5,347 nt of DNA from a virus (IMGVR_UViG_2698536307_000017), one strand, 5' to 3'; shown: positions 190-5,347, counted from the stretch's first letter. Made by a program: numbers and translations. Notes: generated by a model not told the origin, from the letters alone.

Positions 190-727
190 TATTCCTCCTA
201 CAATCAATGTGCAATTACATTTAAACACACCTCAATTTGGCCGGACATATAAATATCTAAACCAGAAAAAATCACTTACATAGCGTTACAAACTCTTTAG
301 TCTAAAGGTTCATCGTAAAACATTCCCCATACTTATCAGTCCGTTCCGCGCCAGGTAGCTCATTGCCTTATCTGGCAACCTGTAATCAGGTTTCCGCTTT
401 TTCAGTTGGCTGGTCGTTTAACCGACATAGTTAATCCATTAATCTAGTTGCCGGATGTTGGTGGATTTTCGCGTTTTAGTTGTTCATAAAAGTGCACAGC
501 TTTAACCAGTTCTTCTGATGTAACTGGGACTGGTGAGGCAGTGAATAAGGCCTGAATTTGATAGTTCGGCCTGTCGTTACAATCCTCTTTTTTCGGTACA
601 TATTTCCAGTCACCAGACCACTACTTCCCCTGAAAGTCCGTAACGCCTTTTTTCACGTAGCGATATCGCCATGCCACTGGTTTTGCTTGCCCCGCCGTTT
701 CATGCCCTTCCTGATAATTAATCTCGC

Positions 728-1079
728 TCATTCATCGCCCCACTCATCACAATATGCTTCGACCGGAGTTTTTCCCGCTTCATAGTCATCACGCTAGGAT
801 TCGACATCAGCAGCACTTCCACCGCGTAACTCACCATAGTCCATTAATAGTTCATCCCGCTCTTCAAAACTGATGTTATATTTAGCTGAACAAAAATCAG
901 CCACTTTGTTCTTCCTCATCGTCTTTTATTTCGTGGTATGAGTAATTGCAGTAGTTAAAGAAAATTTCTTATGCTCCGTCATGAATTTCCTCAGGTGTTG
1001 CGTCATCGTCCACTTCGAATACATCCTCAAAATCTCCACCAGCTATTCCCGTTTCAATAATAATTTTGAACTTTCGCAT
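728..1079 (-). pseudogene. decayed remnant of an acidic protein-coding gene (fragments in two frames with internal stops)
   Basis: Hand translation of the minus strand. Frame A: ATG 1079..1077, MRKFKIIIETGIAGGDFEDVFEVDDDATPEEIHDGA, TAA at 971..969, then sense codons EIFFNYCNYSYHEIKDDEEEQSG to TGA 899..897. Frame B: MRKNKVADFCSAKYNISFEERDELLMDYGELRGGSAADVES from ATG 919..917, TAG at 796..794, then RDDYEAGKTPVEAYCDEWGDE to TGA 730..728. The same acidic composition in both frames suggests one ancestral ORF broken by a frameshift and nonsense codons. Confidence 0.3.
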
Positions 1080-1102: not shown

Positions 1103-1211
1103 CCTCCTGATGTTCTGAGGGTGCAGAAATCCATCCGGTTAAGGATTAAATTTTATTTACAGAACTGAATTTAATTATTCAGATATACGTATCTGTAGCC
1201 TTACGAATCTA

Positions 1212-1265
1212 CTCACTGGATGCCTCTTTCATAAAAATAATCCAGTGGGTTTTATCGTTTTTTCC
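1212..1265 (+). terminator. putative plus-strand intrinsic terminator-like hairpin with T-tract
   Basis: Stem 1212..1221 (ctcactggat) pairs with 1240..1249 (atccagtggg), 10 bp with one G-U pair, 18-nt loop. It is followed by ttttatcgttttttcc (1250..1265). The large loop lowers confidence. Confidence 0.3.
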
Positions 1266-1303
1266 CTGTTCGTTGACAGATAACAGGTTTTCTGTCTGTC
1301 AGT

Positions 1304-1316
1304 GCCAGAATCTGGC
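1304..1316. repeat. 13-bp perfect palindrome GCCAGAATCTGGC, with nearby short inverted repeats (TGACAG at 1274..1279 / CTGTCA at 1296..1301)
   Basis: Read directly from the sequence; lies immediately 3' of the methyltransferase-like ORF stop. Function unknown; could be a protein-binding site or part of a terminator. Confidence 0.6.
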
Positions 1317-1341
1317 TTACCGGTATTTGCGTTTCATTCCA

Positions 1342-1698
1342 TTAAAAAATCAGAACGCCGTGCGGCCTCAACACCCGAAAGGCTTCTTTAAATCTCTGTC
1401 GCGAATCATCACGCCAGGCATCTTTATTCAGCCGTCCATATTTCTTTCCCATCCAGGCGTTATCACCAACACTCTCAAGATGCGGAGGGTCTAATACAAC
1501 CATCGAAAAAGATGCGTCTGCAAATGATAATGCACGAAAATCTGCGATAATGTCAGGGCTGATAATCAAGCGTCTCCCATTGCGTAATGTGTATCCTTCT
1601 TTTCTGATATCGCTGAATATCGCCCGTTCGTCAGACTTATCGAACCAGAACATGCGGCTGCCACAGCACATATCAAGAATGGTTGCCGGTGCACTCAC
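1342..1698 (-). CDS. class I SAM-dependent methyltransferase-like protein (amino-methyltransferase type, DPPH motif), short and probably truncated or decayed
   Basis: 118-aa ORF from the track. Motif I-like ILDMCCGSR (aa 7-15), acidic end of strand 2 (AIFSD), motif IV tetrapeptide D-P-P-H (aa 70-73, nt 1480..1491), then FRVLRPHGVLIF. Start is GTG at 1698..1696, overlapping the upstream ORF stop as GTGA. It is too short for a complete methyltransferase fold; after TAA 1344..1342 the frame stays open for 29 more sense codons to TAA 1254..1252. Confidence 0.5.
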   Translation of the reverse strand: MSAPATILDMCCGSRMFWFDKSDERAIFSDIRKEGYTLRNGRRLIISPDIIADFRALSFADASFSMVVLDPPHLESVGDNAWMGKKYGRLNKDAWRDDSRQRFKEAFRVLRPHGVLIF

Positions 1699-1961
1699 TG
1701 CGCCACGTCCTGAAAATTACCCTGATAGAAAGCCAGTATGCGCTGCATAACTTCGCTCTTCCGGCACTCGCGACAGATTATGTTTAGGCGACTGTCGTAG
1801 CGACGTATTTCTCCGTCAGGTGATGACCAGATAAGGTCCGGATCAACCACAGCAGGTTTCTTCACCTTTGCCCTCGAGAGTTTTTTGCGGGCGTTTTGCC
1901 AGTCCTTACGCGCCTGTTCAGAGGGGAATAACCCGTATCCGGAGCTTAAGTTGCACGCCAT
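1695..1961 (-). CDS. hypothetical protein (88 aa from ATG 1961, or 56 aa from GTG 1865 with a GAGGG Shine-Dalgarno)
   Basis: ORF-track ORF whose stop overlaps the methyltransferase GTG start by 4 nt. ATG 1961 has no Shine-Dalgarno; the in-frame GTG at 1865..1863 has GAGGG 5 nt upstream. No motif recognised beyond a single CxxC (CRECRK). It may instead be the frameshifted N-terminal part of the methyltransferase. Confidence 0.3.
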   Translation of the reverse strand: MACNLSSGYGLFPSEQARKDWQNARKKLSRAKVKKPAVVDPDLIWSSPDGEIRRYDSRLNIICRECRKSEVMQRILAFYQGNFQDVAQ

Positions 1962-2019
1962 TGGGTGGGTTAAGCATAAATGTATTCCTGGTGCTAAATG
2001 GCCCGAAATTCAGGCAGAG

Positions 2020-3918
2020 ATGCGCATCTGGAAAAAACGTCGCGAAGGTGAACGCAAGGAAACCGGAAAATACACGTCTGTTGTTGATCTCGCCCGCGCC
2101 AGAGCCAATCAACAGTACACTGAAAATTCAACAGGAAAAATCAGCCCGGTCATTGCTGCCATTCATCGCGAATACAAGCAGACATGGAAAACACTGGATG
2201 ACGAACTGGCCTACGCTCTCTGGCCTAGTGATGTGGATGCCGGAAACATTGACGGCAGCATCCATCGCTGGGCAAAAAAAGAAGTTATCGACAACGACCG
2301 CGAAGACTGGAAGCGTATCTCGGCATCAATGCGCAAACAGCCTGATGCCCTTCGCTACGACCGCCAAACTATTTTTGGCCTTGTCCGTGAGCGTCCGATC
2401 GACATTCACAAAGATCCCGTAGCACTGAACAAATATATCTGCGAATACCTGACGACAAAGGGCGTGTTTGAGAATGAAGAAACAGACCTGGGCACTGTTG
2501 ATGTTCTCCAGTCATCAGAAACACAAACTGATGCAGTGGAAACTGAGGTATCTGATATCCCAAAAAATGAAACCGCGCCGGAAGCTGAACCATCTGTAGA
2601 GCGTGAGGGGCCGTTCTATTTCCTCTTCGCAGATAAGGACGGAGAAAAATACGGTCGCGCAAACAAACTCTCTGGTCTGGATAAGGCACTGGCTGCTGGC
2701 GCCACTGAAATCACAAAAGAAGAATATTTTGCCCGAAAAAATGGCACATACACGGGCTTACCGCAAAATGTAGATACCGCTGAAGATTCAGAACAACCAG
2801 AGCCGATAAAAGTTACCGCTGACGAAGTAAACAAAATTATGCAGGCAGCCAATATCAGCCAGCCTGACGCCGATAAGTTGCTTGCTGCATCACGTGGTGA
2901 ATTTGTTGAAGGGATTAGTGACCCGAATGATCCGAAATGGGTTAAGGGGCTCCAGACCCGCGATTCTGTGAACCAGAACCAGCATGAATCGGAACGGAAC
3001 TACCAAAAAGCGGAACAAAACAGTCCAAATGCGTTACAAAACGAGCCAGAAACGAAACAGCCTGAACCAGTAGCGCAACAGGAAGTGGAAAAAGTCTGCA
3101 CCGCCTGCGGTCAGACCGGCGGCGGCAACTGCCCTGATTGTGGCGCGGTGATGGGCGACGCAACATACCAAGAAACATTCGATGAAGAGTATCAGGTTGA
3201 AGTTCAGGAAGATGATCCGGAGGAAATGGAAGGCGCTGAACATCCACACAAGGAGAACACTGGCGGCAATCAGCATCACAATAGCGATAATGAAACTGGC
3301 GAGACGGCAGATCACCCAATTAAGGTGAACGGTCATCACGAAATCACATCCACCAGCAGGACGTGTGACCATCTAATGATCGACCTTGAAACCATGGGAA
3401 AAAATCCTGATGCCCCGATCATCTCAATAGGTGCAATATTTTTCGATCCGCAAACCGGAGATATGGGACCGGAATTTAGTAAGACTATCGATCTGGAAAC
3501 TGCTGGCGGAGTCATTGATCGGGACACCATTAAATGGTGGCTTAAGCAATCACGCGAAGCGCAATCTGCCATTATGACCGATGAAATCCCGTTAGATGAT
3601 GCACTGTTACAATTGCGAGAATTTATCGACGAAAACTCCGGTGAATTTTTTGTTCAGGTTTGGGGAAATGGAGCCAACTTCGACAACACGATTTTGCGCC
3701 GTTCATACGAACGGCAGGGGATCCCCTGCCCGTGGCGTTACTACAACGATCGCGATGTACGCACAATCGTTGAGCTGGGGAAAGCCATAGACTTCGATGC
3801 CAGAACGGCTATTCCATTCGAAGGTGAGCGCCATAATGCACTTGATGACGCCCGTTACCAGGCAAAATACGTTTCAGTTATCTGGCAAAAACTGATCCCG
3901 AGTCAGGCTGATTCTTAA
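2020..3918 (+). CDS. RecE-like (exonuclease VIII N-terminal-like) protein fused to a C-terminal DEDDh (DnaQ-like) 3'-5' exonuclease domain
   Basis: Long ORF from the track (677 codons from TTG 1885). In-frame start candidates are TTG 1885, TTG 1951 (GGAG 6 nt upstream) and ATG 2020; I prefer ATG 2020 because the translation upstream of it is Cys/Trp-rich and not protein-like. The C-terminal domain (nt 3376..3915) carries all three DEDDh motifs: Exo I D-x-E in MIDLETMG, Exo II GNGANFD (3664..3684), Exo III H-N-A-L-D-D (3832..3849). Upstream are acidic linkers and a Cys4 knuckle C-x2-C-x7-C-x2-C (3097..3141). The segment DADKLLAASRGEFVEGISDPNDPKWVKG and the Cys cluster match my recollection of the RecE N-terminal region; this is unverified. 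Confidence 0.85.
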   Translation: MRIWKKRREGERKETGKYTSVVDLARARANQQYTENSTGKISPVIAAIHREYKQTWKTLDDELAYALWPSDVDAGNIDGSIHRWAKKEVIDNDREDWKRISASMRKQPDALRYDRQTIFGLVRERPIDIHKDPVALNKYICEYLTTKGVFENEETDLGTVDVLQSSETQTDAVETEVSDIPKNETAPEAEPSVEREGPFYFLFADKDGEKYGRANKLSGLDKALAAGATEITKEEYFARKNGTYTGLPQNVDTAEDSEQPEPIKVTADEVNKIMQAANISQPDADKLLAASRGEFVEGISDPNDPKWVKGLQTRDSVNQNQHESERNYQKAEQNSPNALQNEPETKQPEPVAQQEVEKVCTACGQTGGGNCPDCGAVMGDATYQETFDEEYQVEVQEDDPEEMEGAEHPHKENTGGNQHHNSDNETGETADHPIKVNGHHEITSTSRTCDHLMIDLETMGKNPDAPIISIGAIFFDPQTGDMGPEFSKTIDLETAGGVIDRDTIKWWLKQSREAQSAIMTDEIPLDDALLQLREFIDENSGEFFVQVWGNGANFDNTILRRSYERQGIPCPWRYYNDRDVRTIVELGKAIDFDARTAIPFEGERHNALDDARYQAKYVSVIWQKLIPSQADS

Positions 3919-4276: not shown

Positions 4277-5335
4277 ATGAAATATCCGACAGGCGTGGAA
4301 AACCATGGAGGGAAATTACGTATCTGGTTTGTTTATAAAGACGTAAGAGTCAGGGAAAATCTGGGGGTTCCTGACACAGCAAAAAACAGGCGCGTTGCAG
4401 GTGAACTACGCTCCTCTGTTTGTTACGCAATAAAAACTGGTGTTTTCGACTATGCAAAACAGTTTCCCTCCTCACGCAATCTGGAAAAATTTGGTGAGGC
4501 CCGACAAGATTTAACCATAAAAGAACTGGCTGAAAAATTTCTGGCACTGAAAGAAACTGAAGTCGCCAAAACATCACTCAACACATACCGTGCCGTCATC
4601 AAAAATATCCTGAGCATAATCGGTGAAAAAAATCTTGCCTCATCGATTAATAAAGAAAAATTACTGGAGGTTCGTAAAGAGTTACTGACTGGATACCAGA
4701 TCCCCAAAAGTAACTATATTGTTACACAACCAGGGAGATCGGCTGTAACTGTAAATAATTACATGACAAATCTTAACGCCGTGTTCCAGTTTGGTGTTGA
4801 TAACGGTTACCTGGCAGATAATCCGTTTAAGGGGATCTCGCCATTAAAGGAATCAAGAACCATTCCGGATCCTCTTTCGCGGGAAGAATTTATCCGTCTT
4901 ATCGATGCGTGCAGAAATCAGCAAGCAAAAAATTTATGGTGTGTTTCTGTTTATACTGGAGTTCGCCCTGGTGAGCTGTGTGCACTTGGATGGGAGGACA
5001 TAGATCTGAAAAATGGAACAATGATGATCAGGAGAAATTTAGCAAAAGACCGTTTCACGGTACCAAAAACACAGGCGGGAACCAATCGGGTCATTCATCT
5101 TATTAAGCCAGCAATCGACGCTCTCCGGAGTCAGATGACATTAACGAGACTGAGCAAAGAGCATATCATTGATGTTCACCTCAGAGAGTATGGCAGAACA
5201 GAAAAACAAAAATGCACCTTTGTTTTGGAAGGTGCGAATAAGCAGGTCATTTCTTCCCAAGCTGACTCGCTGATTAAAATTTCTCGGATCTGGGCCGATT
5301 TTTTTCCCGCAAACACATCGAATCAGCCTATTTAG
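4277..5335 (+). CDS. int: phage integrase (tyrosine recombinase, lambda-type with N-terminal arm-binding domain), apparently C-terminally truncated
   Basis: N-terminus MKYPTGVENHGGKLRIWFVYKDVRVRE is an arm-type DNA-binding domain as in IntR-like integrases. Core box YTGVRPGELCALGWEDIDL holds the conserved Arg; the beta-hairpin Lys lies in VPKTQAGTNRVIHL. The ORF stops at TAG 5333..5335 with no HxxR, second His or catalytic Tyr. The track ORF starts at ATG 4262; ATG 4277 has a purine-rich GAGAGAAG upstream and matches the usual start of the family. Confidence 0.8.
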   Translation: MKYPTGVENHGGKLRIWFVYKDVRVRENLGVPDTAKNRRVAGELRSSVCYAIKTGVFDYAKQFPSSRNLEKFGEARQDLTIKELAEKFLALKETEVAKTSLNTYRAVIKNILSIIGEKNLASSINKEKLLEVRKELLTGYQIPKSNYIVTQPGRSAVTVNNYMTNLNAVFQFGVDNGYLADNPFKGISPLKESRTIPDPLSREEFIRLIDACRNQQAKNLWCVSVYTGVRPGELCALGWEDIDLKNGTMMIRRNLAKDRFTVPKTQAGTNRVIHLIKPAIDALRSQMTLTRLSKEHIIDVHLREYGRTEKQKCTFVLEGANKQVISSQADSLIKISRIWADFFPANTSNQPI

Positions 5336-5347
5336 GCTATTTTTTCC

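Follow-up and report, generated by a model that had tools for sequence, protein, structure and literature searches.

A very probable pseudogene copy of a small orphan phage methyltransferase in a Qin-type cryptic prophage of Escherichia coli

Orphan methyltransferases of the Dam type, such as the enzymes of phages T4, T1 and P1 and the Dam of Stx phages, are phage-borne, lie in the early region and have a presumed anti-restriction role. In the gamma class, represented by M.TaqI, and in the (D/N)PP(Y/F) N-methyltransferases Trm11, TrmN, RsmC and HemK, motif I precedes motif IV, with a DPPx tetrapeptide after strand 4. M.NgoMXV was described as an 'unusual' gamma-class cytosine-N4 enzyme with homologs (PMC3874165), and M.NgoMXV / M.NgoDCXV of Neisseria gonorrhoeae as an orphan gamma-type m4C enzyme with the target GCCHR (bioRxiv 10.1101/2019.12.17.880476). 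The closest group is a phage family of proteins of about 160 residues (phrog_954, phrog_11564 and phrog_6151), with members in phage A118 (gp50), Streptococcus phage T12, a Stx2c phage and Klebsiella prophages. A literature search on DPPH-motif methyltransferases and on lambdoid orphan methyltransferases found no experimental characterisation.

The DNA described here (the window) is the whole stretch of 5,347 nucleotides of the viral record IMGVR_UViG_2698536307_000017. Its minus strand carries, at positions 1209 to 1698, what is very probably an inactivated pseudogene copy of an orphan, SAM-dependent phage methyltransferase of about 160 residues. The window copy shares motif I, DPPH and the gene position after lygF or replication genes with the phage family named above; in contrast to that family it ends at residue 118 of 162, is frameshifted and mutated at conserved sites, and has lost its promoter. 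The Dam-type enzymes (MethyltransfD12) belong to another family: the window ORF does not match MethyltransfD12, its motifs come in a different order, and it is about 100 residues shorter. M.TaqI, Trm11, TrmN, RsmC and HemK share the motif order. However, the phage family has no target-recognition or substrate-binding domain, has histidine as the fourth residue of the tetrapeptide, is only 13-19% identical to these enzymes and is predicted to be helix-free in its first 80 residues. The likeness to M.NgoMXV is one of description: that enzyme is an orphan m4C methyltransferase, and some phage members are labelled N4-cytosine methyltransferases.

The prophage locus and its features

Many E. coli strains carry the window sequence at 99.9-100% identity in a region of the chromosome adjoining rspB-rspA-ynfA. 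This region is the site of Qin-type cryptic prophages, and relBE-hokD, flxA, ydfV and ydfW are also found there. At least 168 of 5,426 complete E. coli genomes have a place spanning at least 80% of the window, a count that refers to window coverage only. On identical sequence the order annotated by NCBI is IS1, a hypothetical pseudogene, a DUF7167 pseudogene, WP_001310834.1, a DUF977 pseudogene, an exoribonuclease-domain pseudogene, an excisionase and an integrase. The features are as follows (window coordinates, strand, description, basis).

1-117, no strand: end of an IS1 element (in identical genomes the IS1A transposase coding sequence extends to window position 100)
310-731, minus strand: hypothetical-protein pseudogene, frameshifted and with an internal stop (NCBI annotation)
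897-1079, minus strand: DUF7167 pseudogene interrupted by an internal stop; first gene past the 3' end of the methyltransferase (NCBI annotation of a 100%-identical region)
1209-1698, minus strand: ancestral methyltransferase gene of 162 codons and a stop, 490 nt including one inserted base, very probably a pseudogene (alignment with the intact genes L010, L011 and L005)
1209-1211, minus strand: ancestral stop TAG, reached in the restored frame only (alignment, frame repair)
1258-1266, minus strand: one extra base within GGGAAAAAA (plus strand TTTTTTCCC), giving a +1 frameshift (all intact genes show a gap at alignment column 446)
1342-1344, minus strand: nonsense codon TAA at codon 119, which is AAA in intact relatives (alignment column 368)
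1342-1698, minus strand: open ORF of 118 codons with a GTG start, WP_001310834.1 of NCBI (sequence reading, database matches)
1695-1944, minus strand: 3' fragment of lygF (DUF977, 'Ren-like'), about 80 of 140 codons (Pfam, phrog_142, NCBI 'missing N-terminus')
1935-1944, no strand: deletion joint, a 10-nt imperfect microhomology GTA(T/G)CCGGAG (three-way alignment across the joint)
1935-3918, plus strand: 5'-truncated exonuclease gene without its first 488 nt (phrog_2082 positions 156-822 of 823, NCBI 'missing N-terminus')
4277-5226, plus strand: integrase gene, cut after about 316 of 426 codons (the full gene in L003 is equivalent to window 4277-5557)
5227-5347, no strand: end of an IS5-family element (ISKpn26-like) abutting the cut integrase (genomes without the IS match only to 5226)

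The intact family and its probable substrate

When 5.8 billion proteins were searched, the 118-codon ORF gave 1630 matches, with intact relatives at E = 1e-63 and below; its likeness to methyltransferases is far above chance level. It is 82-87% identical to intact E. coli members, and among the proteins returned by the searches no intact one exceeded 87% identity to the window allele. Against phrog_954 ('DNA methyltransferase') it scores E = 6.7e-58 but covers profile positions 52-165 only, while the intact E. coli protein P0017 spans 50-204. By its sequence, the 118-residue copy appears to be an incomplete member of phrog_954 by descent. The full-length members are 155-167 residues long, mostly 157-167, and start at the same GTG or at an ATG (MSAPATILD...), and the sequence-only reading of the ORF as methyltransferase-like, undersized and decayed is borne out. 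The family has 2,008 representatives at 50% identity (E ≤ 0.001) and at least 7,962 clusters at 90% identity (E ≤ 1e-10). Many members from other taxa (P0126, P0129, P0132, P0143) are 200-240 residues long owing to an N-terminal extension of 50-80 residues, which in P0143 is a DUF6291 domain.

Intact members are found in temperate phages of Streptococcus, Vibrio, Acinetobacter, Porphyromonas, Listeria (A118 gp50), Gordonia, Lactobacillus, Enterococcus and Staphylococcus, so that the surmise of a phage-borne gene was correct. Across these genera they are 45-65% identical to P0017, and the phages have hosts among the Proteobacteria, Firmicutes, Actinobacteria and Bacteroidetes. Their setting is always an early replication/recombination module: they follow DUF977 or O/P-like genes, lie between abc2/DUF2737 and ead/Ea22, or follow a DnaD-like loader. 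An endonuclease partner never accompanies them. No restriction endonuclease gene was found anywhere in the window or beside intact members at eight loci, in agreement with the orphan status proposed earlier.

Among 74 diverse members the residues D9, D30, R32, P48, D70-P71-P72-H73, R108 and W120 are invariant. DPPH, which had been noted as unusual, is thus the signature of the family and no trait peculiar to the window copy. M.NgoMXV probably carries a DPPH motif as well, and a relationship to the family is possible. Scans with Pfam and NCBIfam found no dedicated model for the family and gave only borderline generic matches (Methyltransf_11, 21.6 bits at a cut-off of 21.2, over 22 residues). 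An HMMER comparison had been suggested, with N6_Mtase, MethyltransfD12 and RsmD-like families in mind; these scans assigned the ORF to no specific family and gave no MethyltransfD12 match.

The fold was modelled with AlphaFold for the intact protein P0017. The alignment of 74 diverse sequences gave a pLDDT of 95.3, compared with 53.8 when 35 close homologs were used. In the model, strand 1 (residues 7-9) is followed by a glycine loop, strand 2 (residues 26-30) ends in D30, strand 4 (64-69) directly precedes DPPH, and a long helix (95-109) is followed by strand 5 (110-121), a helix (127-131) and strands at 138-144 and 150-156. The class I SAM-dependent features are present: LDMCCGSR at residues 8-15, and D30, invariant in the 74 members, at the end of strand 2. 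The motif IV tetrapeptide stands right after strand 4, with His and not Tyr, Phe or Trp as its fourth residue. The target-recognition domain of the gamma class is absent, the Rossmann core filling the full-length members in the model. Where class I methyltransferases normally place helices behind strands 1 and 2, the P0017 model is helix-free over its first 80 residues and has a beta-hairpin at 34-46. If the prediction is right, the family would represent an unusually stripped-down Rossmann core. Searches of solved structures by sequence, with the single protein and with a profile, returned generic class I methyltransferases only, the best being PH0226 (E = 3.3e-5). The structural neighbours include the RNA m2G enzymes Trm11, TrmN and RsmC, Bud23, generic small-molecule enzymes and the DNA enzyme M.TaqI.

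In an intact lambdoid phage the methyltransferase gene is read from the early-right promoter, and its translation is coupled to that of the preceding lygF (DUF977) through the GTGA overlap. [quoted passage not shown] The target would most likely be phage DNA, recognized with low or no sequence specificity, and its methylation would blunt host restriction. DNA is moderately favoured as the substrate of the intact family, by analogy with other DPPx enzymes. The DNA substrate and the anti-restriction role are suggested by DPPH and by database labels (PHROGs 'DNA methyltransferase'; A118 gp50 'methylates cytosine residues'). An anti-restriction role can reasonably be inferred for the intact relatives, and would be ruled out for the dead window copy.

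The substrate of the intact family may instead be RNA, methylated for instance at guanine-N2 or adenine-N6 of tRNA or rRNA, or else a protein or small molecule, which is possible but the less likely case; the window copy would then be what is left of such an activity. A protein of 160 residues without a target-recognition domain would suit such a substrate, as would the presence of Trm11, TrmN, RsmC, Bud23 and small-molecule enzymes among the best structural matches; NCBI calls one member 'TRM11 family', and no curated Pfam or NCBIfam model gives a substrate. However, the genes stand consistently in the phage replication/recombination setting near DnaD-like, O/P-like, RecT and Erf genes in many phyla, and the (D/N/S)PP(Y/F/W)-type motif is a hallmark of nucleic-acid amino-methyltransferases. 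The stretch from DPPH to RVLKPGG weakly matches Pfam N6_N4_Mtase (E = 0.003), and the label given by phage annotators is DNA methyltransferase. That the intact DPPH family of 160 residues comprises a DNA methyltransferase without sequence specificity, or an enzyme acting on RNA or protein, is a tentative proposal and somewhat doubtful. In its intact form the parent family is very abundant and among the most widespread enzyme families of temperate phages; it has no curated model, and an intact member would be a reasonable subject for methylome analysis.

The window copy and its lesions

Direct reading of the sequence confirmed the minus-strand ORF with ILDMCCGSR at residues 7-15 and DPPH at residues 70-73, as well as the 29 sense codons that follow the TAA up to a second TAA at 1252-1254. 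The GTG start overlaps the TGA of an upstream ORF of 88 codons (1695-1961) by 4 nt (GTGA), likewise as first noted. A base-level DNA alignment of the window gene with three intact genes of 161 or 162 codons (L010, L011 and L005) showed that the 118-codon ORF is the front 73% of a 162-codon gene. The first lesion replaces K119, a near-invariant lysine of the family, by the TAA stop; the same TAA is found in L012. The 29 codons beyond it encode the family continuation WNETQIPVSQILALTDRKPVICQRTGK and then diverge. Full-length members read ...GVLIFKWNETQIPVSQILALTD.KP.I.QRTGK.DKTHWIIF.K... past residue 118. The second lesion is the extra base in the run GGGAAAAAA, whose position within the run is undecidable; L013 reads GGAAAAAA there. 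When one base is taken out, NDKTHWIIFMKEASSE is restored (...QRTGKNDKTHWIIFMKEASSE*), with the conserved C-terminus KTHWIIF and the TAG stop. The sequence-only reading of a once-longer methyltransferase broken by a nonsense codon and a frameshift was therefore right about the nonsense codon at position 119; the frameshift lies near the 3' end, and there is none upstream. Nor do the coordinates 1252-1961 mark the extent of the gene, since the ancestral stop falls outside them.

The window copy would be inactive. The nonsense codon would strip the last 44 residues, with the final helix and strands 6 and 7; the +1 insertion shifts the remaining frame, and conserved residues have been replaced. 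In the model of the intact protein everything after residue 118 is part of what the window copy has lost, so that its seven-stranded sheet is incomplete. Among 82 columns that are at least 95% conserved in 90 full-length relatives, the window allele deviates at eight (H36Y, C39R, D40N, P58S, F69L, R76S, G102R and K119stop), compared with a family mean of 1.5 deviations per sequence (sd 2.0). In strain 13E0767 an allele 98.8% identical to that of the window carries both lesions and still has R76 and L99. The replacements R76S and L99S of the window allele therefore postdate inactivation. This sister allele is labelled 'frameshifted; internal stop' by NCBI.

Other alleles were also compared. The same 3' homopolymer run has been struck repeatedly, P0014 (82 member sequences) having the opposite, -1 frameshift there. 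P0012 has GAA rather than TAA at codon 119 but retains the +1 shift, and P0008, a mosaic allele, has the same stop as the window copy. P0003 (147 residues) was considered as a readthrough form and rejected, being an N-terminally different chimera that likewise ends at F118.

It is very unlikely that the 118-residue product is complete or still useful, for instance as a SAM-binding fragment or a regulator, and kept by selection. Such a use would agree with the NCBI annotation of WP_001310834.1 as a normal coding sequence and not as a pseudogene, with the presence of the allele at ≥ 99% identity in 382 complete E. coli genomes (~7%), and with the retention of motif I, the acidic residue after strand 2 and DPPH. 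However, the product is without strands 6 and 7 and a helix, seven of the deviations listed above are replacements at highly conserved positions, the native promoter region is deleted (see below) and the neighbours are all dead. Variants of the same allele that are IS-fused, internally deleted, further shortened or chimeric are common (P0006, P0011, P0020, P0022). Strain ATCC 8739 is one carrier of the identical allele. Persistence at 99-100% identity is best explained by recent common descent, some residual use being also possible. The window copy represents ordinary gene decay, already annotated in hundreds of genomes. On the reading as a pseudogene, WP_001310834.1 should very probably be annotated as a pseudogene product and not as a working methyltransferase of 118 residues.

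The upstream ORF of 88 codons had been taken for a further piece of the methyltransferase, its N-terminal part behind a frameshift, and three pieces were to be aligned with full-length homologs. The downstream piece does belong to the same gene, out of frame from about 1258-1266. The upstream piece is lygF. It matches Pfam DUF977 (PF06163) with E = 6.1e-15 and 55.9 bits (cut-off 22.1), its residues 9-84 aligning with profile positions 62-134 of 134, the C-terminal half alone, and it also matches the PHROGs family 'Ren-like exclusion protein' (phrog_142). Phage records name the DUF977 gene lygF, and its intact product has 140 residues. Beyond 1944 and up to 1961 the ORF is a fortuitous reading of exonuclease-derived sequence, its ATG lying past the deletion joint in the opposite strand of the exonuclease gene. 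The intact prophages L010 and L011 carry a 140-residue DUF977 gene followed by a 162-residue methyltransferase gene with the same GTG and the same GTGA overlap. Since intact phages share this two-gene junction, the 4-nt overlap is normal translational coupling and no scar of a frameshift. The stop/start overlap and the sense codons past the TAA, on which a gene in three pieces could be built, are real, but with two separate genes in intact phages and full-length methyltransferases that begin at this GTG or an ATG, such a gene is highly improbable. Literature searches on LygF found only unrelated papers or Salmonella genome notes, and those on DUF977 with methyltransferase found no characterisation.

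Errors of sequencing or assembly in a gene that is really intact can practically be dismissed as the source of the stop and the frameshift: one lesion does lie in a homopolymer run, a typical site of error, but the 490-nt sequence occurs at 100% in many independently sequenced genomes (382 at ≥ 99%) and in the phage record PV340562, and both lesions recur in the 98.8%-identical allele.

The deletion joint and decay of the prophage

The methyltransferase gene had been described as transcribed divergently from the exonuclease. As a gene layout this does not hold; the arrangement is the scar of a microhomology deletion of 4,620 bp. On the lygF side the window is 99.9% identical to phage PhiR42_1 up to position 1944, and on the exonuclease side the identity starts at 1935. 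The 4,620 bp missing with respect to PhiR42_1 comprise the start of the exonuclease gene, genes of the ydfD/ydfC/ydfB type, a repressor and cro (dicA/dicC type), a cII/YdaT-type gene, an O-like gene and the first ~60 codons of lygF. The joint fuses the 3' part of lygF head-to-head with the truncated exonuclease gene, and the immunity/replication region of the prophage is gone. The divergent early promoters lie in the deleted region, so this later deletion took away the promoter region that served the methyltransferase gene and with it the native transcription signal of the remnant. A promoter consensus scan of the minus strand upstream of the lygF fragment and the methyltransferase gave no promoter-like site. 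In PhiR42_1 and in strain 13E0767 the region is undeleted and the methyltransferase is already broken, so the point lesions precede the deletion.

The intact exonuclease of PhiR42_1 has 823 residues. The protein is a mosaic, with a RecE-like middle part (exodeoxyribonuclease VIII model positions 271-600, E = 5e-84) and a C-terminal domain that has the Rv2179c-like 3'-5' exoribonuclease fold (PF16473, E = 1.9e-67) and is not the RecE nuclease. A CxxC...CxxC stretch, CTACGQTGGGNCPDCG, lies between the two.

The methyltransferase remnant and three further dead genes lie in a row in a Qin-type cryptic prophage, which IS1 and an IS5-family element have also cut. The locus records the decay of this prophage step by step: point lesions, then the microhomology deletion of the immunity region, then damage by the IS1 and IS5-family elements. 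An Rfam scan of the window gave no match. Intact copies of both the hypothetical gene (310-731) and the DUF7167 gene (897-1079) are present in the related prophage L013. Related genomes free of IS1 match the window only from position 116 on. The integrase fragment matches Pfam Arm-DNA-bind_2 and, partially, Phage_integrase. In strain SCPM-O-B-9504 (L016, 7941-9068) the same ISKpn26 end is found within rspB, 1,214 bp farther along, and the integrase is intact. In the strain of the window, an IS-adjacent deletion seems to have taken the 3' end of the integrase and part of rspB. Elements of IS600, IS30, the IS3 family and ISVsa5 are found at various points of the same remnant in several related genomes.
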